From positions 1 to 64,000 of the forward strand of contig JBBQXJ010000001.1 of the NCBI GenBank assembly GCA_038209745.1: a DNA stretch of 64,000 nt. Reading direction: 5' to 3'. Positions 43,713 to 50,677 of the stretch are shown here, piece by piece. Position numbers and translations under genes: made by a program. A model generated the notes under the pieces. That model was not told where the DNA came from. It searched no databases and saw only the letters and a program-made list of their open reading frames with translations. The DNA comes from Verrucomicrobiota bacterium. Its GTDB lineage: Bacteria > Verrucomicrobiota > Verrucomicrobiia > Limisphaerales > CANJSG01. Numbering within the stretch: the stretch's first letter is position 1; each line of letters starts with the position of its first letter.

Positions 43713-44594
43713 CTACGTCTTGTTCCGCACAAGGCGCAGTCCGACCGACACCAGCGAGGCCAGTCCGTAGACGATTCCCAAAAACACGACGTCCGTCGGG
43801 CCCACCGGCAGATCCCATTCATAGGCGATCCAAAAACCGAGGAACGCCGAGACCCCACCGATGACCGACGCCAGCACGGTGAACTGGCGCATGTTCCGGG
43901 CGAACAGGTGCGACGTCAGCGCCGGGATCAAAAGAAAACCGAACGAAATCAGCGGCCCCACGCTGAGCACCGCCATGGAAACGGTCAGCCCGATCAATGC
44001 GAAGATCAGCACGTCCCAGAAGACGACGTTCTTCCCCAGCGTGACCGCCATCGCGCGGTCGAAGGAGACCAGCAGGATCTCCTTGTGGAACAGGCCGAGC
44101 ACCAGCAGCACGACCCCGAGCGTGACGGCGGTCAGCACCAGGTCGGCGTTGTCGATCGTGATCACCTCGCCCTTCATCAGGTCCAGCCAGCCGACCTCCG
44201 CATACCGGTTCTTTGAGAGCAGGATGATGCTCAACGCGGAGGCGACGACATAGCCGGCCCCCAGACGCCCCTCGGGCAACCCGCGCCCCCGCCGTTCCAA
44301 CACGGCGAACACCATGATGGCGACCAGCGAGAAGAGCGTGGAACCGACGAACGCCACCAGATGTTCGCTGTGGGCCTCGTGCTCCGGCTTCATCGCCCCC
44401 AGCCACATCGGGACGGACAGGGCGATGGCGACACCGGTCGAGGAGATCTGCGGCAGCGCGACACCCATGAAGACGAGCCGTCGCAGGACAAGAAAGACTC
44501 CGACCAACGGACAGGCGAACCCGATGAGCACGCTGGTGTAGACCGAGTTTCGTAGGAGGAAATCGGGCGAGAGGATCTGGTGGAGCGATTCCAT
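43713..44594 (-). CDS. Zn/Mn-type ABC transporter permease
   Basis: VGVFLVLRR, SFDRAMA and VGPL...LLIPA motifs; multi-TM. Confidence 0.9.
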   Translation of the reverse strand: MESLHQILSPDFLLRNSVYTSVLIGFACPLVGVFLVLRRLVFMGVALPQISSTGVAIALSVPMWLGAMKPEHEAHSEHLVAFVGSTLFSLVAIMVFAVLERRGRGLPEGRLGAGYVVASALSIILLSKNRYAEVGWLDLMKGEVITIDNADLVLTAVTLGVVLLVLGLFHKEILLVSFDRAMAVTLGKNVVFWDVLIFALIGLTVSMAVLSVGPLISFGFLLIPALTSHLFARNMRQFTVLASVIGGVSAFLGFWIAYEWDLPVGPTDVVFLGIVYGLASLVSVGLRLVRNKT

Positions 44595-44595
44595 A

Positions 44596-45300
44596 TCAGC
44601 CGATCTCCATTTCAAAAATCTCCGTCATGCGCTCCCGGGTCAGGAGCTCCGCCACGGTGCCGTGGAGAACCTTTCCCTCATGCAGCCACACGACCTGCTG
44701 AGCGTGTTTGCGCACGAGCGGCAGGTCGTGGGTCACCATCAGGATCGTCAGTTTCCGTTCTTCGTGGATGCGCGAGATGAACTGCAGCAAGGAGCGCGTC
44801 GCCGCGACATCCACGCCGGCGGTGGGTTCGTCGAGCACGAGCGCCTCGGGCCGGGTGGCGAGCGCACGGGCGATCAGCACGCGCTGTTTTTGACCTCCCG
44901 ACAGGTCGGTGAACTTCTTGTGCGCGAAGCCGTCCGCCGCCGTCGCCTGCAGGCACTCGCGGGCAAAGGCCCGCTCCGACTTCGGCACCCATCGTCCGGG
45001 TCCGATGCGTCCGTAGGCGCCCATCAACGCCACATCAAACCCCGTCAAGGGATAGAGCGGATCGAACTGGCTGGATTGCGGCACGTAGCCGAACCCGGCG
45101 GGCGGATCAATGCGGATGCGGCCCGAGACGGCCGGCTGGAGACCGAGCAGCGTCTTCAGCAAGGTGGACTTGCCGGACCCGTTCGCGCCGAGAATGGCGG
45201 TGAAGCTGGAACGCTCCACCGCGAGGGAAATGCCGGACAGGAGGGCCTGGCCATCGTAGCCGATCGCCAAGTCGTCCAGCGTGATGATGGGATCGCTCAT
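44596..45300 (-). CDS. Zn/Mn-type ABC transporter ATPase
   Basis: GANGSGKST, YVPQ, LSGGQKQR, LDEPT and THD. Confidence 0.93.
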   Translation of the reverse strand: MSDPIITLDDLAIGYDGQALLSGISLAVERSSFTAILGANGSGKSTLLKTLLGLQPAVSGRIRIDPPAGFGYVPQSSQFDPLYPLTGFDVALMGAYGRIGPGRWVPKSERAFARECLQATAADGFAHKKFTDLSGGQKQRVLIARALATRPEALVLDEPTAGVDVAATRSLLQFISRIHEERKLTILMVTHDLPLVRKHAQQVVWLHEGKVLHGTVAELLTRERMTEIFEMEIG

Positions 45301-45304
45301 GCCG

Positions 45305-46222
45305 CTATTTCTTCACCGCCCCCACGAACGAACGCACGATATAGTCCATCATCTCGATGTAGGTGTCGGTGTGCGGCACGCCGCCGGGCATGATCGGGAG
45401 TTTGATCAGCGCCGCCCCGGTTTCCTTGGCGATGAGCGAGGGCACCTTCGCGGGGAACTGGGGCTCGCGGACCACGATCGGCACATGCTCGGCCTTCATG
45501 GTGGAGACCAGTTCCTCGATGTGTCGCGGCGTGGGATCAATCCCGGGTTTCAGCTCGATGGTGCCAATATATTTGAACCCGAACCGTTCCGCGAAGTAGG
45601 GCCAGTGTTCGTGGTAGGAGACGAACGCGGTTCCCTTGAGCGGCTCCAGTTCCCGGCTCCACTCGGCGATCTTGGCGTCGAGTTTCGCGAGGTAGGCGTC
45701 GCGGTTGCGCGCGTAGTCCGCCTGATGCTCGGGATCGGCCGTGATCAACGCAACGTAGATGTTCTTGATCGCGGTCTTCGCCAACACCGGGTCAAGCATG
45801 TAGTGCGGATTGCCGTAGGGATGCACGTCGCCTTGCGAGTGGTCGGTGGACGCCGGCACGCCAACGGGCGTGACGCCGGCCGAGCAGTCCACATAGCCGG
45901 GATGGCCGTATTGGATGCGCGGGTTGCGGCTGGCCTCGAGCAATCCGGGCAGAAAGGAATGCTCGCAGCCAAACCCGATCAAGATCACCAGGTCCGCGCG
46001 GTTCAGGCGTGGGACGAAGCTCGGCTTCATCGGCACGCCGTGGGTGTCCTCGATGCCCGTCGCCAGGCTGAAGACATCCACGTGGTCGCCGCCGATGTTG
46101 CGCGCCAAATCGGCGAGATCGGTCAATGTGGTGACGATACGGATCTTGGCCGCTTGGGCGGATGGGATCGCGAAGGCGAAAGCGCCAACGAGCGCGAGAA
46201 GGTTGAAGAATCGATATTTCAT
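45305..46222 (-). CDS. Cluster A-I (ZnuA/TroA) metal-binding periplasmic protein
   Basis: Signal peptide; EDTHG, VHPYGNPHY, YHEHWPYF and E.KPGI.PTP.H. Confidence 0.92.
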   Translation of the reverse strand: MKYRFFNLLALVGAFAFAIPSAQAAKIRIVTTLTDLADLARNIGGDHVDVFSLATGIEDTHGVPMKPSFVPRLNRADLVILIGFGCEHSFLPGLLEASRNPRIQYGHPGYVDCSAGVTPVGVPASTDHSQGDVHPYGNPHYMLDPVLAKTAIKNIYVALITADPEHQADYARNRDAYLAKLDAKIAEWSRELEPLKGTAFVSYHEHWPYFAERFGFKYIGTIELKPGIDPTPRHIEELVSTMKAEHVPIVVREPQFPAKVPSLIAKETGAALIKLPIMPGGVPHTDTYIEMMDYIVRSFVGAVKK

Positions 46223-46244
46223 GGGGGTGTTCTCCGTGGTTCGT

Positions 46245-47669
46245 TCACCGCTGCTGCCAGCCGTGGGCATGGGCGCCGATGATCCAGGCCCATTGCAGAT
46301 AGACGGCGTCGTCCGAAGGCAGGCCAGAAGACGCGCTGTTTTCCGTGTGGGTGTATTGCAGCCGGAGCTGGTTCCAGTGGCTCACCGCAAAGGTGAGGTA
46401 GGGCGAATAGGCGAACGTCTCGACGGAGTTGTTCTGCGGGCTTTGCACCCAGTCGAAGAGAAATCCGGCGCTCCATTTTCGGTTCCATTTGTAGGTCGCA
46501 TAGGAATACAGGCCCAGTGAACCGATGCTGCCGTAGGCTTCGTCCCCGCTCGGCCGGCCGCCGTTCGCCGGATTCAGGCTTCCATCCGGGTCCGTCCAAT
46601 AGCGGGTGTCGCCATAGAGAAGCTCCGTTCCCCAGTCGAGCCGGCGGTATTCGTTGTCGGCCAGCGGCACGTAGCTGAACCGCAGATCCAGGCCCGCGAC
46701 GCGACGCGCCTTCTCGGTCAACGTGCTGCCGTCCGGCTGGACCAGGACGCCGCCGCGATCCCGCGTGATCGGGTTGATCAAGCCTGACACGCCCGTCTCC
46801 ATCTCCAGGTCGGGCGTCAGATCGAAGTAGGTGGAGAGGCGCCCGAAGTAGTTGAGACCGCCCAGAGGACGGTAGGCGCCGGGATTGTTCAGCGGACTGC
46901 CGCCGCCGAAGCCGTTTCCGAAGCCCGCCACCGCGCTGATGTAGTGGTCCGTCGGCAACAGCCAGCTCAGCTGCGCGCCGTCGGTCCGGGACTCGCCGCC
47001 GATGTATTGGTCGAGCGCCAGCGGCCGGTTCACGAACGGCAGCTCGTGGTCGTGGATGTCCGACAGTTTCCCGAACTCGGCGAAGAACCGGCCCGCTTTG
47101 AGTTCGAGCCCCCAAGGCAGCGAAGTCGTCTGCAGCGCCGCCTCTTCGACGCCCAAGCTCGCTTCGCCCGAGGCCGCATCGGCCGAGGCGTTGAGCACGG
47201 CGTAGCCTTTGGCGAACGGATCGACCGACGCCGAGAAGTCCAACTCCAGTGAACGCTGGAACACATCAAACCCGCCCGCCCGCCCGTTCCCGGTCTGATC
47301 CGAGCCCCGGCTGTTGTAGGAGAACACGGTCTCTCCCACCAAGCCGATGGCCGGATTGAATTCACCGGGGAGGATCTTCTTCTGTGCCTCCACCACCGAA
47401 TCGACCTCTTTCTTCAGGTCCTGTATCTGCGTGGACTCGGGAGTGGCTGCGGCTGGCTGCGGCGCTGGGGGAGCAGATTGGAGTTTCTCAAGCTGGTGCT
47501 GGAGGGAATCGATCTGCTGCCGCTGCTCCTGCGCAGTCTGCTCGAACTTGCGCTGCATTTCTCCGAGCTGTTTCTTCAACTGCTCGATATCGGTCGTCTC
47601 CTGGGCTGCCAGCGGCAAAATGCCGAGGCAGAGGGCCGAAGACAGGCCCACAAGGGTTCTGGATTTCAT
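46245..47669 (-). CDS. Predicted outer-membrane beta-barrel associated with the metal ABC operon
   Basis: Signal peptide, Gln-rich coiled coil, FNPAIG, VDPF, IHDHELPF, alternating beta pattern and C-terminal IGAHAH. Confidence 0.8.
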   Translation of the reverse strand: MKSRTLVGLSSALCLGILPLAAQETTDIEQLKKQLGEMQRKFEQTAQEQRQQIDSLQHQLEKLQSAPPAPQPAAATPESTQIQDLKKEVDSVVEAQKKILPGEFNPAIGLVGETVFSYNSRGSDQTGNGRAGGFDVFQRSLELDFSASVDPFAKGYAVLNASADAASGEASLGVEEAALQTTSLPWGLELKAGRFFAEFGKLSDIHDHELPFVNRPLALDQYIGGESRTDGAQLSWLLPTDHYISAVAGFGNGFGGGSPLNNPGAYRPLGGLNYFGRLSTYFDLTPDLEMETGVSGLINPITRDRGGVLVQPDGSTLTEKARRVAGLDLRFSYVPLADNEYRRLDWGTELLYGDTRYWTDPDGSLNPANGGRPSGDEAYGSIGSLGLYSYATYKWNRKWSAGFLFDWVQSPQNNSVETFAYSPYLTFAVSHWNQLRLQYTHTENSASSGLPSDDAVYLQWAWIIGAHAHGWQQR

Positions 47670-47769
47670 ATGCGATACACCGACGGGGTTTGATTCAAGG
47701 AATGTCGCGGTGCGGCCGCGAAGCCGGTCAAGCTTCAGCGCGTCGCAACTGGGACAGATGGGGGATGAA

Positions 47770-48102
47770 TCAACCCTGCGGTGGACCGCGGGAATGATAG
47801 GGGAGAACAACAGGGGAGGAAACGACACCAAAGGACGCGGAAAAAACCTCGATCCAAGATTCGGGCTGCCTCGGGAGCGGCCCCACATCGGTCTGGGCCA
47901 GTCCGGTTTCTCCGTTCGCCCAGTGGACAAAGGCGCAGTCGTGGCCGGAGGCCCCGGCATCGGGATGGAGCAGCGGATGAATCGCATCGCCGGCCGTCAG
48001 GAGAAAAACCAGCGCAAGCATCAACGCTCCCGCCAAGCTGCGGCAAACCTTCCATCCCAAGGCGGATCGCGCCTTGTTATGAGAGATTGACGGAGCGTTC
48101 AT
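47770..48102 (-). CDS. DUF2946-like His-rich leader peptide ending in RGPP
   Basis: 110 aa: hydrophobic segment, HPLLH...HDCAFVH, Pro-rich spacer, then SRGPPQG-stop. Lies 100 nt upstream of the OM protein gene. Confidence 0.75.
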   Translation of the reverse strand: MNAPSISHNKARSALGWKVCRSLAGALMLALVFLLTAGDAIHPLLHPDAGASGHDCAFVHWANGETGLAQTDVGPLPRQPESWIEVFSASFGVVSSPVVLPYHSRGPPQG

Positions 48103-48206
48103 TTTTTCGACGGGAGACAAACCCGGGGTGCCTTGCCGCTTGGATCGGGCAAACCTTTCGGATCGTCCGACCGACATCGGAACAGTCGACCGGCAAGATG
48201 GTGGAC

Positions 48207-48227
48207 TTGAGGGCGCAGTCAACTCAA
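48207..48227. promoter_or_regulatory. Candidate promoter/operator of the leader-metal uptake operon
   Basis: TTGAG-N11-CTCAA inverted repeat overlapping a minus-strand TTGACT that is followed 16 nt later by CATCTT. Confidence 0.3.
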
Positions 48228-48258
48228 TGCCTTCCCCGACACGCCGGACGCCTTCTTC

Positions 48259-48483
48259 TCAGAACTGGAACGGCTCGTTCATCCGGCCGCACTGGGGACA
48301 CTTGGACAGGTCCACATCCGAGTCGTCGGTGTAGGTGTAGCCGCACTTCTCGCAACGGAAGATGCGGTCGGGCGCTTCGGTGGACCGGAACCGGCGTCGA
48401 CGGAACTCCCATTGCACCACCAAGGCCAAGAGCCCTGCCAGAAGCACGATCAAATAAAGCGCGATGTGGGCTTCGGGTGTCAC
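48259..48483 (-). CDS. 74-aa membrane-anchored zinc-ribbon protein
   Basis: One TM segment, RRRR, CEKC...CPQC; GTGA overlap with the upstream gene. Confidence 0.8.
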   Translation of the reverse strand: MTPEAHIALYLIVLLAGLLALVVQWEFRRRRFRSTEAPDRIFRCEKCGYTYTDDSDVDLSKCPQCGRMNEPFQF

Positions 48484-49280
48484 GGTTGCGGGGCTCCCTG
48501 GGGCAACTGCGTGTTCCACCGGATCCGGAGGAGCCCCGTTGCGAGCGGAGCGCCTCGATTCGGCTTGAACGCCAAATCCAGCGCCGTTTTCACCGCCAAT
48601 TGATCCGCCAGATGGGCCACTTCGGACCCACCGCTGCGCTCGGCCAACCGTGCGGTCAGCACCCGGCCTTCGGCATTTACCGCGACGGCCACCACGGAGT
48701 CCTTCAACAGTTCGCCGGAGGTCTGGTCTGGAAGAGGCGGCAACGGCTCTTCCAGACGGTCGCGCAAGACCCTGTCCAGCTCGGCGCTGGACTCCGTCCT
48801 CAGCGGTGCGGGCAGCGGCAGAACCGGCGGCTGGAGAAGCGCGGGCAGATCGGATTCCTCGCTCGCGGCGAGCAACGGCCGCGATGCTTGTGGAAGCATC
48901 GCGTAGGCTTGGCCGAGCGTATTGGTCTGGAGCGAGAGCCAGTGGGTGGCGTCGACCCATTCAACCCGCACCTGGGGCAGAGCCGGCAGTTGCAGCCAGC
49001 CTTCGCCGGAAAAGCCGAGGTATCCGGGCAGCACGGCTCCGGCCGGATCGGGCACTCCGAAGAACGTCGCCAAGGCCTGCGGCGAAATCGCAGCGGGAAT
49101 CCAGCGCACGGATGGGCCTTTGGGTTGCCGCGCCGCCATCTCGTCCGGCCGGCTGCCCGTGGCGTAGATGAAGCCCACCTGAACCACAAAAAACACCACG
49201 CCCCAGACGACCATCTTGCGGACGGACCATCCCGCGTCTACCGCCGGAGTCTCCTTCTCGTTGGCGCCGGGATGTGTCAC
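48480..49280 (-). CDS. TonB-like energy transducer (divergent)
   Basis: N-terminal TM, Pro-rich middle and C-terminal VAVNAEGRV...SGG...ADQLA...FKP resembling TonB_C; follows exbBD. Confidence 0.65.
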   Translation of the reverse strand: MTHPGANEKETPAVDAGWSVRKMVVWGVVFFVVQVGFIYATGSRPDEMAARQPKGPSVRWIPAAISPQALATFFGVPDPAGAVLPGYLGFSGEGWLQLPALPQVRVEWVDATHWLSLQTNTLGQAYAMLPQASRPLLAASEESDLPALLQPPVLPLPAPLRTESSAELDRVLRDRLEEPLPPLPDQTSGELLKDSVVAVAVNAEGRVLTARLAERSGGSEVAHLADQLAVKTALDLAFKPNRGAPLATGLLRIRWNTQLPQGAPQP

Positions 49281-49283
49281 GGG

Positions 49284-49946
49284 CTAGCGGATCCTGGTGT
49301 TTTCAAACGCGCCCGGCCGAGCGGCGAGCAGGATCTCCTGGATGCCGGCTTCACGGGCCACCTCGGTGAGTCGGATCAGGGTGGCGTTGTCCACCGCCCG
49401 GTCCGCCAAGACCACGAGCGTGACCGGATCCGGCCGCGCTCCGACGGCGTCGCTGAGGGAGATGCGCAGCTGGGCTTCGTTGACGAGCCGGTTCTGGAAG
49501 AAGAACTGGCCGGAGAAATTCACCGCGACGGCCACCGACCGGTTCGCCGTGCCGCCCAGCTCTCCGCGCGCCATCGGCAGTTCGATCCGGCCCGCCGCTT
49601 CCACGAGCTTTCGGACGGAGTCGACCAGCCCACGAGGCGCCGTGTCCGTGGAGACCACGCGGACCGTGCTGCCCGCCGGGAGTTCCGCGAGGCGACGACG
49701 GAGCGTGGGCAAGTCGTTGGTGAGATAGGCGCTGTCCGCGAACTGCACGACGCCGGTGCCGGTGACCTGGATGACCGCCGTGACGGCGTTCAGTCCCGAG
49801 GCCGAACGATCGAGACGGATCGGGATCCCGGGCGTGTAGACGAGCCCGGCCAACACAACGAAGAAAAGCAGCAGGAACAGCACCGAGACCAGCGGCGCGA
49901 CGTTGATCTCGCCCCGGAAGACCTTCGCGTTGCGCGGGAATTTCAT
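49284..49946 (-). CDS. exbD: ExbD/TolR family protein (atypical)
   Basis: INVAPLVSVLFLLLFF TM segment; C-terminal LADRAV...AREAGI; ATGA overlap with exbB. Confidence 0.85.
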   Translation of the reverse strand: MKFPRNAKVFRGEINVAPLVSVLFLLLFFVVLAGLVYTPGIPIRLDRSASGLNAVTAVIQVTGTGVVQFADSAYLTNDLPTLRRRLAELPAGSTVRVVSTDTAPRGLVDSVRKLVEAAGRIELPMARGELGGTANRSVAVAVNFSGQFFFQNRLVNEAQLRISLSDAVGARPDPVTLVVLADRAVDNATLIRLTEVAREAGIQEILLAARPGAFENTRIR

Positions 49947-50566
49947 TCCGTGGGCACGGTGATGTCGCCGACGAGGTTCAGCGCCTCGGTGGACGCCTGT
50001 TCCATGTCGAGCACGATGGCGTTCACACGGCCGACGAGGAAGTTGTAGCCTCCATACGAGACGATCGCGACGACCAGACCGCCGGCGGTGCAGATGAGCG
50101 CTTCCCAGACCCCGCTCGAAAGGCTGCTGACGCTGGCCATGAGGCCCGCGGCTTCCAGCTGGCGAAACACTTTCATCAGACCCAGGACCGTTCCCAGCAA
50201 ACCGACGAGCGGCGAAATGTGGGCCACGGTGGCGAGGATGTTCAGCCGCTTCTCCAGCCGGGGCACTTCGAGGAATCCGGCGTCTTCCAAAGCCTGGCGC
50301 ACGCCGTCGCGGCCGCGATCACGGTTCAACACCGCCACCTTGACCAGACGGGGCACGGGGCCGGCGGTGGCGTCGCAGATCGCGACGGCCTCGACGATGT
50401 TGTCGCGTTTGAGGACGTTGCGGACGCCGTTGAGGAACTCGGCGGCGTTGATCTGCGCGCGGTGGTAGTGGAGCTGACGTTCGATGAAGACCGTCAGCCC
50501 GACGGCGCTCAGCGCGAGCAGCACCCACATGAGGGGCCCGCCCTGCGAAAAGAAACTCGGCAACAT
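49943..50566 (-). CDS. exbB: MotA/TolQ/ExbB proton channel protein
   Basis: GGPLM, SPLVGLLGTVLG and EALICTAGGL motifs. Confidence 0.92.
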   Translation of the reverse strand: MLPSFFSQGGPLMWVLLALSAVGLTVFIERQLHYHRAQINAAEFLNGVRNVLKRDNIVEAVAICDATAGPVPRLVKVAVLNRDRGRDGVRQALEDAGFLEVPRLEKRLNILATVAHISPLVGLLGTVLGLMKVFRQLEAAGLMASVSSLSSGVWEALICTAGGLVVAIVSYGGYNFLVGRVNAIVLDMEQASTEALNLVGDITVPTE

Positions 50567-50677
50567 GGGCAGCGTTATACGCGGGGCCTTCCCGAAAGCA
50601 AATGGCGCGGTGTGGACCACGACCTCTTCGTCCGGATCCCACGAGCAACGATACCGATGGATGGCGGCAAGGAGCGG

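Follow-up and report, generated by a model that had tools for sequence, protein, structure and literature searches.

The question raised by this locus is whether a small open reading frame (ORF) of 110 codons, placed directly ahead of the genes of a presumed metal importer, encodes a protein that acts as such or a peptide whose translation regulates the genes behind it. The ORF, here called the leader, lies on the minus strand of a 64,000-nucleotide stretch of a Verrucomicrobiota genome (assembly GCA_038209745.1, contig JBBQXJ010000001.1, positions 1 to 64,000); this whole stretch, at its full length, is the window. An earlier examination of the letters without database searches (the sequence-only reading) had proposed a metal-sensing, ribosome-arresting leader peptide. 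The comparisons described below favour this view: with a probability of roughly 0.6, the leader is a metal-responsive arrest peptide of the kind of CruR and CutF, which acts as a regulatory upstream ORF (uORF) and is not a structural gene. Because a known stalling motif stands at its end and a metal-binding-like cluster of His and Cys residues precedes it, the leader is probably a translational switch for the uptake operon.

Anatomy of the leader and conservation of its family

The coordinates of the ORF and every element that had been described in it from the letters (a hydrophobic segment, a His/Cys cluster, a spacer and the tetrapeptide RGPP two codons before the stop) were correct. Four basic residues (K10, R12, K18 and R21) precede the hydrophobic core of 17 residues. 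The cluster reads I-H42-P-L-L-H46-P-D48-A...H54-D-C56-A-F-V-H60-W-A-N-G64-E and is followed by about 40 residues with no obvious features and by the C-terminus S-R105-G-P-P108-Q109-G110-stop, with 44 residues between H60 and R105 and 48 between C56 and R105. C56 is the single Cys of the window's leader, and neither the CXXC of CruR nor the CxxxC of CutF is present. Scans of the leader against Pfam and NCBIfam gave no family at E ≤ 1.

Variation among strains indicates that the gene is real. Four strains about 99% identical to the window, from sediment metagenomes, show only two changes inside the ORF, at 47821 and 48001, and since both are synonymous third-position changes, the leader is considered to be under purifying selection. 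The same strains show five changes within 48182–48199, that is, 80–97 nt upstream of the ATG at 48102, three of which would be non-synonymous if a longer frame from TTG 48222 were used. Because the changes cluster upstream of the ATG, this codon is favoured over TTG 48222 and is the likely start of the leader. The genome contains one copy of the family. A scan of 47500–48600 for sigma-70 promoters found none, and the one terminator-like site in that scan lies inside the leader ORF and is within chance expectation.

A word-indexed search returned 23 candidates, of which eight were homologues of 44–98% identity; aligned, they show no variation in either motif or in the place of the stop two residues after PP, and variation in the intervening region. 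A profile of these nine sequences (leader and eight homologues) was scored against 1.84 billion cluster representatives and matched 81 proteins at E ≤ 0.001. Two matches were rejected and removed before the family was counted, P0011, a 3181-aa SprB-repeat protein with six matching stretches, and P0029, a repeat protein lacking the motifs; the 85 homologues examined are P0002–P0088 minus both. H-x-C together with [RCH][AGDS]PP near the end was found in 83 of the 85, one of the remaining two having D-x-C and the other being truncated. The 83 members end in RGPP (45), RAPP (31), RDPP (3), CGPP (2), HAPP (1) or HGPP (1), and in 81 of them PP is followed by 1–8 residues.

The distance from Cys to Arg is nearly constant, with 47 residues in 39 members and 48 in 36 (75/83 together); the other eight have 46, 49, 49, 50, 50, 51, 59 and 61. 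In an alignment of 62 members H42, H46, H54, C56, P107 and P108 are invariant, and D48, G64 and R105 are conserved in at least 95% (D48 in 95%); H60 is restricted to the window's subfamily. The mean frequency of the top residue is 0.59 over the motif, 0.65 around RGPP and only 0.27 over spacer residues 67–100. A constant length without a constant sequence would be expected of a ruler to the peptidyl-transferase centre and not of a folded domain. Ahead of the first His most members carry A-[LM]-A-A-S-P-x-L-H, which, as read from the sequence, resembles a signal-peptidase I site; the counterpart in the window is L-L-T-A-G-D-A-I-H. The position of the second Cys of the DUF2946 CXXC is occupied by Thr in 65% of the family and by Val in the window.

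Of 61 genomes from the window's genus and order, 22 matched the family profile, the window's own included; among the six other genomes of the genus, three did. Loss of RGPP in relatives had been named beforehand as a result that would speak against an arrest leader. It did not occur: 22 of 23 homologous ORFs from other genomes keep R-x-P-P at the same place, 2–11 residues before the stop, with a longer tail in L010, and the lone ORF without it (L015) ends at the end of its contig. Collection scans for close relatives yielded one true locus, L021, and a sample of 401 genomes of the phylum held no further member of the HDCAFVHWANGE subfamily. L022–L024 were rejected as relatives, being unrelated proteins. 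The protein in L023 (5641–6561) and L024 (2761–3681) surfaced through the octapeptide HDCAFVHW used as a search pattern. It has about 170 residues from its likely start and an N-terminal, zinc-ribbon-like CPQC...CPDHDC that contains HDCAFVHW, with the Cys of the octapeptide in the place expected for a zinc ligand. Judged by eye, it may be a NUDIX-type hydrolase, and the shared octapeptide is probably due to chance.

R-x-P-P endings and comparison with known arrest leaders

The ending of the leader had been likened to RAPP-type stalling motifs, and the literature goes further in the same direction, as RGPP is described as the strongest RAPP-like arrest motif and the most avoided tetrapeptide (PMC12992588). 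RGPP and RAPP are reported to arrest translation in many N-terminal contexts and to resist EF-P, and uORFs with such endings are reported upstream of TonB-receptor, YcnI, PCuAC and PepSY genes in many phyla (PMC12992588). The window's leader shows the sequence features of RAPP-type arrest peptides, being a small ORF that has a localisation signal and, close to its end, R-[AG]-P-P. Over the long ORFs of the window's genome the observed/expected ratio is 0.50 for RGPP and 0.52 for RAPP, which are the most depleted of their 12 residue orderings. Stop-to-stop frames with a C-terminal RGPP or RAPP number 24 and 25 genome-wide and are almost all GC-rich noise; only the window's ORF among them carries the family motif.

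The likeness to DUF2946 leaders (PF11162) put forward in the sequence-only reading is borne out by the spacing. A set of 24 genuine DUF2946 ORFs was obtained from 16 of 61 genomes of one order of Proteobacteria; 22 of them have both C-x-x-C and R-x-P-P, and in these the first Cys and the Arg lie 48 residues apart in 10 cases, 47 in 4, 49 in 4, 46 in 3 and 51 in 1. CruR, with CXXC at 90–93 and RAPP at 139–142, has 45 residues between the motifs and 48 from the first Cys, and this spacing, altered there by 1, 2 or 5 residues in either direction, is said to matter for regulation (PMC9426467). A profile-profile alignment of the leader family with DUF2946 is collinear over 63 columns without net gaps and places H-x-C on H-C-x-x-C, with C56 on the first Cys, and RGPP on RAPP. 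The window's leader shares with DUF2946 leaders a RAPP-like ending near the stop, the fixed spacing (48) and a co-directional metal-homeostasis operon behind it. It does not reach the gathering score of PF11162 (23.7 bits), and a six-frame translation of the whole genome contains nothing at E ≤ 10 for that model. CbtB, another model, is touched by 4 of 62 family members, and among the protein-language-model neighbours of the leader one cluster, at rank 26, has PF11162 on 54% of its members. In our reading the leader has the architecture and the ruler of DUF2946 without being a member by sequence model.

CruR of Bordetella pertussis (Bp2923; DUF2946, PF11162) is described as the copper-responsive uORF of an operon for a TonB-dependent importer; its motif is needed for expression of the importer, copper acting through CXXC relieves the arrest, the effect is exerted through Rho-dependent termination, and sensing is reported to be cytoplasmic (PMC9426467). 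Like CruR, the window's leader is a short ORF that has a hydrophobic segment near its N-terminus and keeps its metal-ligand motif a set number of residues ahead of R-x-P-P (48 from the first Cys to Arg), which in turn stands 2–3 residues before the stop, and it heads a metal-acquisition operon with an outer-membrane component. The expected logic would also be alike, with metal relieving the arrest and turning the importer off. In place of CXXC and RAPP, however, the leader has a single Cys after three invariant His and an Asp, and RGPP; its cargo is a porin-like outer-membrane protein with a ZnuA-type ABC importer and not a TonB-dependent transporter; and the intergenic region measures 100 nt and has a predicted helix with the start region, whereas that of CruR measures 162 nt and has a Rho-dependent terminator (PMC9426467).

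CutF of Rhodobacter capsulatus is a copper-sensing nascent exported protein that controls cutO (PMC9973294). A stem-loop of its mRNA masks the next ribosome-binding site and is proposed to be melted by the stalled ribosome, and sensing is reported to be periplasmic (PMC9973294; bioRxiv 10.1101/2025.02.05.636593). CutF and the window's leader have in common a Sec-type signal, a metal motif, a C-terminal proline motif and, in the predicted fold of the window, an mRNA structure over the next start region. They differ in that CutF has CxxxC and a PPP-type, EF-P-dependent motif and switches a detoxifying enzyme on at high copper (PMC9973294); the opposite sign would be expected in the window, the cargo here being an importer.

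ApdA, ApdP and the Streptomyces lividans set are likewise small secretory or membrane ORFs that carry R-[AG]-P-P close to their end and have a co-directional gene behind them; two of the S. lividans arrest peptides have conserved Cys/His residues and metal-related genes downstream (PMC12992588). Beyond the four-residue core there is no sequence relation to these peptides, and a fixed ruler to His3-Asp-Cys and a recurrent ZnuA-type cargo distinguish the family described here. In the SecM-secA system of Escherichia coli, similarly, arrest near the C-terminus of the leader opens an mRNA structure over the next start and pulling on the chain ends the arrest, as is proposed for the window's leader; SecM, however, has RAGP with a long tunnel-interacting sequence and senses SecA-driven export, not metal.

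Genes and RNA pairing downstream of the leader

The features of the locus are detailed in Table 1. The leader had been placed directly upstream of genes for an outer-membrane protein, a substrate-binding protein, an ATPase and a permease, and the family scans agree: the outer-membrane gene begins on the same strand after a gap of 100 nt counted from the leader stop, and the three ABC genes, which match PF01297, PF00005 and PF00950, follow it tightly packed or overlapping.

Table 1. Position and basis of the features of the leader, the intergenic RNA and the downstream operon (coordinates of the window).
Feature	Position	Strand	Basis
Leader ORF, 110 codons + stop	47770–48102	minus	ATG at 48102, TGA at 47770–47772; homologues; synonymous-only strain variants inside
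Hydrophobic core, residues 22–38 (signal peptide or membrane anchor)	47989–48039	minus	sequence reading; AlphaFold2 helix 14–36
Metal-binding-like cluster, residues 42–65: H42, H46, D48, A49, H54, C56, (H60), G64	47908–47979	minus	family alignment
Spacer, residues 66–104, constant length, variable sequence	47791–47907	minus	family alignment
RGPP codons R105–P108, presumed arrest site; 2 codons, then stop	47779–47790	minus	sequence and family conservation
5' arm of predicted long-range helix: codons Y102 to stop + 4 nt	47766–47797	minus	minimum-free-energy folds
Inner imperfect hairpin inside the long-range helix	47703–47756	minus	minimum-free-energy folds
3' arm: 28 nt upstream of the outer-membrane ATG, the ATG (47667–47669), 1 nt after	47666–47697	minus	minimum-free-energy fold
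Outer-membrane-type protein, 474 aa, with a coiled coil at the N-terminus and a signal peptide; presumed to be the first gene controlled	46245–47669	minus	homologues behind the leader elsewhere
ZnuA-family substrate-binding protein	45305–46270	minus	PF01297 at 3e-56
ABC transporter ATPase	44596–45300	minus	PF00005 at 4e-26
ABC-3 family permease	43713–44615	minus	PF00950 at 4e-39

The 474-aa outer-membrane-type protein has no Pfam match at E ≤ 0.05, only weak unrelated matches being obtained, and one of its homologues matches the BBP2 porin model weakly (E 1.9e-4, below the cut-off). The best solved relative of the substrate-binding protein is Synechocystis ZnuA (2ov1, 1.3e-24), with His on His at three conserved sites which we take to be zinc ligands. 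Zinc is the best guess for the metal of the cargo, as predicted from this likeness; binders of manganese and iron occur in the same family as ZnuA.

The search for small ORFs with R-x-P-P endings ahead of orthologous operons, suggested in the sequence-only reading, gave a positive answer, since ZnuA-type operons of relatives carry the same leader. The next co-directional ORF was scanned in 17 family loci from other genomes of the order, L014 (where the next ORF has 71 aa) and L015 (contig end) being excluded. It encodes a homologue of the outer-membrane protein in eight loci (BLASTP against the window's protein, 4e-28 to 2e-45), a DUF1559/N-methyl protein in two, a Fur-family protein in two, a TonB-dependent receptor in one and a protein without a Pfam family in four. 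In all eight outer-membrane loci a ZnuA-family gene comes next, and in seven of them an ABC-3 permease then follows. L021, from a separately assembled genome, has the complete set of five genes (leader, outer-membrane protein, binding protein, ATPase and permease), with identities to the window of 48%, 33% (3e-62), 37%, 54% and 53%, respectively; the leader is thus better conserved than the neighbouring outer-membrane and binding proteins. The order leader, outer-membrane gene, ZnuA-family gene was found in 10 loci, the window included, and the gap between leader stop and start codon is 83–108 nt in nine of these 10 and 245 nt in L010.

Other cargoes were observed behind members of the family. 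The Fur-family genes L008:2054–2572 and L017:639–1163 (PF01475, 5e-13 and 3e-15) lie 265 and 196 nt behind the leader, and in these two loci an arrest leader might control a metalloregulator itself. The DUF1559/N-methyl (type II pseudopilin-like) cargoes L002:567–1343 and L011:552–1250 have no obvious link to metal. The TonB-dependent receptor L020:1826–3265 (Plug, 2e-21), a CruR-type cargo, belongs to the window's own genus and stands behind a leader ending in ERGPPFLG. Directly upstream of the leader in L021 (5265–5777, plus strand) is a gene whose 170-aa product, exported and without a Pfam family, contains GGHHHEH and may be a periplasmic metal-binding accessory.

Upstream of the leader in the window, also on the minus strand, are genes for ExbB (PF01618, 8.5e-30; 49943–50620) and ExbD (PF02472, 8.6e-14; 49284–49946), a 266-aa ORF without a Pfam match that is possibly TonB-like (48480–49280) and a small membrane protein with a rubredoxin-like zinc ribbon (PF21349, 3.8e-6; about 48259–48480). 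This co-directional, energy-transducing set (48259–50620) is not beside the leader in L021 or in the eight other ZnuA-type loci examined. The plus-strand ORFs 47347–48090 (247 aa) and 47781–50048 (755 aa) overlap the leader and the ExbB/ExbD genes; because it is the minus-strand genes that carry family matches, both are most likely shadow frames of GC-rich DNA.

In the predicted fold of 47640–47830 the end of the leader, including the RGPP codons, pairs with the start region of the outer-membrane gene in a helix of 26 pairs (region z = -2.3). A measure of this pairing was fixed before the relatives were considered, namely the expected number of pairs between positions -9 to +21 of the Arg codon and -25 to +5 of the start codon, with 100 dinucleotide-shuffled versions of the intergenic region for comparison. 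The window reached 22.8 expected pairs (shuffle mean 1.9, standard deviation 4.1), a value attained by 0/100 shuffles. Values for the other loci, with the number of shuffles out of 100 that reach them, were 15.9 (0) for L021, 10.5 (2) for both L013 and L004, 10.4 (4) for L006, 5.9 (14) for L016, 5.6 (46) for L009, 4.0 (13) for L017, 2.2 (35) for L008, 0.8 (14) for L020, 0.5 (25) for L018, 0.2 (28) for L012 and about 0 for L005, L010, L002 and L011 (83, 68, 99 and 49, respectively).

The helix of L021 uses the Arg-Gly codons as in the window, with a non-coding partner that differs in sequence and register, and in a column-wise alignment of the two loci the 3' arms are out of register. The segment UCAAACC of the 3' arm, partner of the stop-codon region, is identical in both, and L021 has a hairpin of different sequence at the place of the window's inner hairpin. 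In L016 and L009 it is the last codons and the stop, not the Arg-Pro codons, that pair with the start region. At 47707 the window has G and all four other strains have C; the C closes a pair in the inner hairpin and stabilises it by about 7 kcal/mol (-66.0 with C versus -58.9 with G).

Proposed mechanism, alternatives and significance

According to the mechanism proposed, a ribosome translating the leader would arrest at R105-G-P-P108 with the Pro codons in its P and A sites and would cover roughly 47766–47797, the 5' arm of the 26-bp helix. The start region of the outer-membrane gene would then stay open, Rho would possibly be blocked or the C-rich tract after the stop shielded, and the outer-membrane protein and the importer would be made. 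The cluster H42/H46/D48/H54/C56 on the nascent chain would bind a divalent metal, zinc being the best guess, at a point where about 42 residues separate its C-terminal end from the catalytic centre, so that it would lie just outside the exit tunnel or in the translocon. Compaction induced by the metal would pull on the chain and end the arrest; the ribosome would terminate, the helix would re-form and the importer would be off when metal is plentiful. We infer arrest of the leader, metal binding, the identity of the metal, the direction of control and translation, as opposed to transcription, as the controlled step. That metal switches the operon off is likewise what we infer, because the cargo is an importer and from the example of CruR; the opposite direction, of the CutF type with metal switching the operon on, could apply instead. 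From the sequence, sensing may be either cytoplasmic, as in CruR, or periplasmic, as in CutF.

Several results weigh against this interpretation. The helix is not family-wide, as only 5 of the 16 loci have values reached by at most 4/100 shuffles and eight have essentially no pairing; two DNA sequences, those of the window and L021, give no column-by-column covariation for it; and the strain variant 47681 (one run) breaks one of its pairs. When arrest was simulated by keeping the 28 nt of a ribosome footprint, with the first Pro codon at its centre, from pairing in a context of 240–250 nt, the start region of the window became only modestly more accessible, its mean unpaired probability going from 0.31 to 0.42. 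L021 showed no gain (0.575 to 0.585), its AUG being mostly open beforehand. The Pfam model does not place the leader in DUF2946; weak matches to PF11162 come from 3 of 62 family members, with a best E of 0.0042, and the probability of the profile-profile alignment is only 35% (E 4e-4). An R-x-P-P motif would not guarantee arrest, given that the proline-rich motif of CutF alone did not stall in a reporter (PMC9973294). Finally, the metal specificity of the window's binding protein is itself only a prediction.

The modest gain in accessibility is also a reason to consider that the same arrest leader acts on transcription, the arrested ribosome shielding a Rho-loading site after the stop and its release leading to termination before the outer-membrane gene, with the helix secondary. 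This is the published mechanism of CruR for a metal importer (PMC9426467), and the first 30 nt after the leader stop in the window are rich in C (43%) and poor in G (17%), the figures for the locus being 32/32. The bias of C over G after the stop is, however, inconsistent across the family, being present in some loci (e.g., L013, L016, L011, L020 and L007) and not in L005, L009, L012 and L018, and a 26-bp helix that includes the start codon would be left without a role; control of this kind is considered unlikely. Still lower is the probability assigned to a stable small metal-binding protein, exported or membrane-anchored, that serves as chaperone or accessory of the outer-membrane/ZnuABC system and whose synthesis RGPP at most slows. 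The invariant His/Asp/Cys residues and the signal-like N-terminus would fit a metal-binding protein of the periplasm, the gene and the transport genes run in the same direction in every case, and the AlphaFold2 model made with the family alignment has a mean pLDDT of 81 (pTM 0.48). That model, however, consists of helices 14–36, 38–45 and 57–62 and of coil after residue 62; only about 25 residues are conserved, the 40-residue spacer keeping its length and not its sequence; RGPP and RAPP are otherwise depleted in the genome; and the products of CutF and CruR are reported as undetected in cells (PMC9973294, PMC9426467).

An RGPP ending combined with a localisation signal is, on the other hand, a class feature of substrates that monitor Sec or YidC (PMC12992588), and the leader might report export or membrane-insertion capacity, like SecM, ApdA and ApdP, and not metal. 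We regard this as very improbable: such substrates precede a gene for protein localisation, whereas an outer-membrane protein and a ZnuA-type importer follow in the window; no Sec or YidC component was found behind the leader in any family locus examined; and an invariant His3-Asp-Cys at a fixed distance would be purposeless. Spurious ORFs abound in GC-rich genomes, and the frequency of RGPP- and RAPP-ending frames in this one allows the thought that the ORF is a product of chance and that an RNA element alone matters. This is scarcely credible in view of the invariant residues and a protein-level conservation that reaches down to about 25% identity in 81 clusters, and of strain variants within the ORF that are synonymous only. 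An arrest peptide responsive to metal remains the preferred explanation of the leader.

Metal-sensing RAPP-type leaders are already known as a kind, and the earlier description of this one as uncharacterised stands only in part. His-only CutF-like clusters, found beside HupE/UreJ genes in the survey of the CutF paper (PMC9973294), and RGPP uORFs upstream of metal genes (PMC12992588) had already been surveyed. The main text of PMC9973294 does not name the window's leader family among its phyla. The literature searched, supplements of the surveys excluded, contained neither the His3-Asp-Cys family nor the exact DUF2946 ruler without DUF2946 membership, the link to a porin-like protein with a ZnuA-type importer or the Fur-family cargo.

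To our knowledge, copper is the only metal for which sensing by an arrest peptide has been demonstrated by experiment, in CruR and CutF. It is put forward tentatively, and with more doubt than confidence, that the leader is the first nascent-chain switch responsive to zinc (or to another divalent metal that is not copper), in which folding of His3-Asp-Cys 47–48 residues from RGPP frees the ribosome and shuts off a ZnuA-type importer. The module would be used across a whole order of Verrucomicrobiota, ahead of ZnuA operons, Fur-family regulators and a TonB-dependent receptor, and it would be either a diverged branch of DUF2946, passing from Cys2 and copper to His/Cys and zinc, or a convergent one.

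Zinc uptake is thought to be under the control of Zur and, in some bacteria, of riboswitch-like elements. If the proposed mechanism is true, a post-transcriptional layer would be added to zinc-type homeostasis in a poorly studied phylum, and the family would offer a natural test bed for the release of RGPP arrest by ligand-induced folding. A ruler common to two families with no detectable sequence homology makes the question of why there are 48 residues directly testable, and if the leader family is convergent with DUF2946, the shared length would disclose a physical constant in the way force is transmitted along the ribosome tunnel. For annotation, the rule of a transmembrane segment or signal, HxxxHxDA(x4-5)HxC, 47–48 residues, R[AG]PP and 2–7 further residues would mark about a hundred clusters of "hypothetical proteins" as regulatory leaders.

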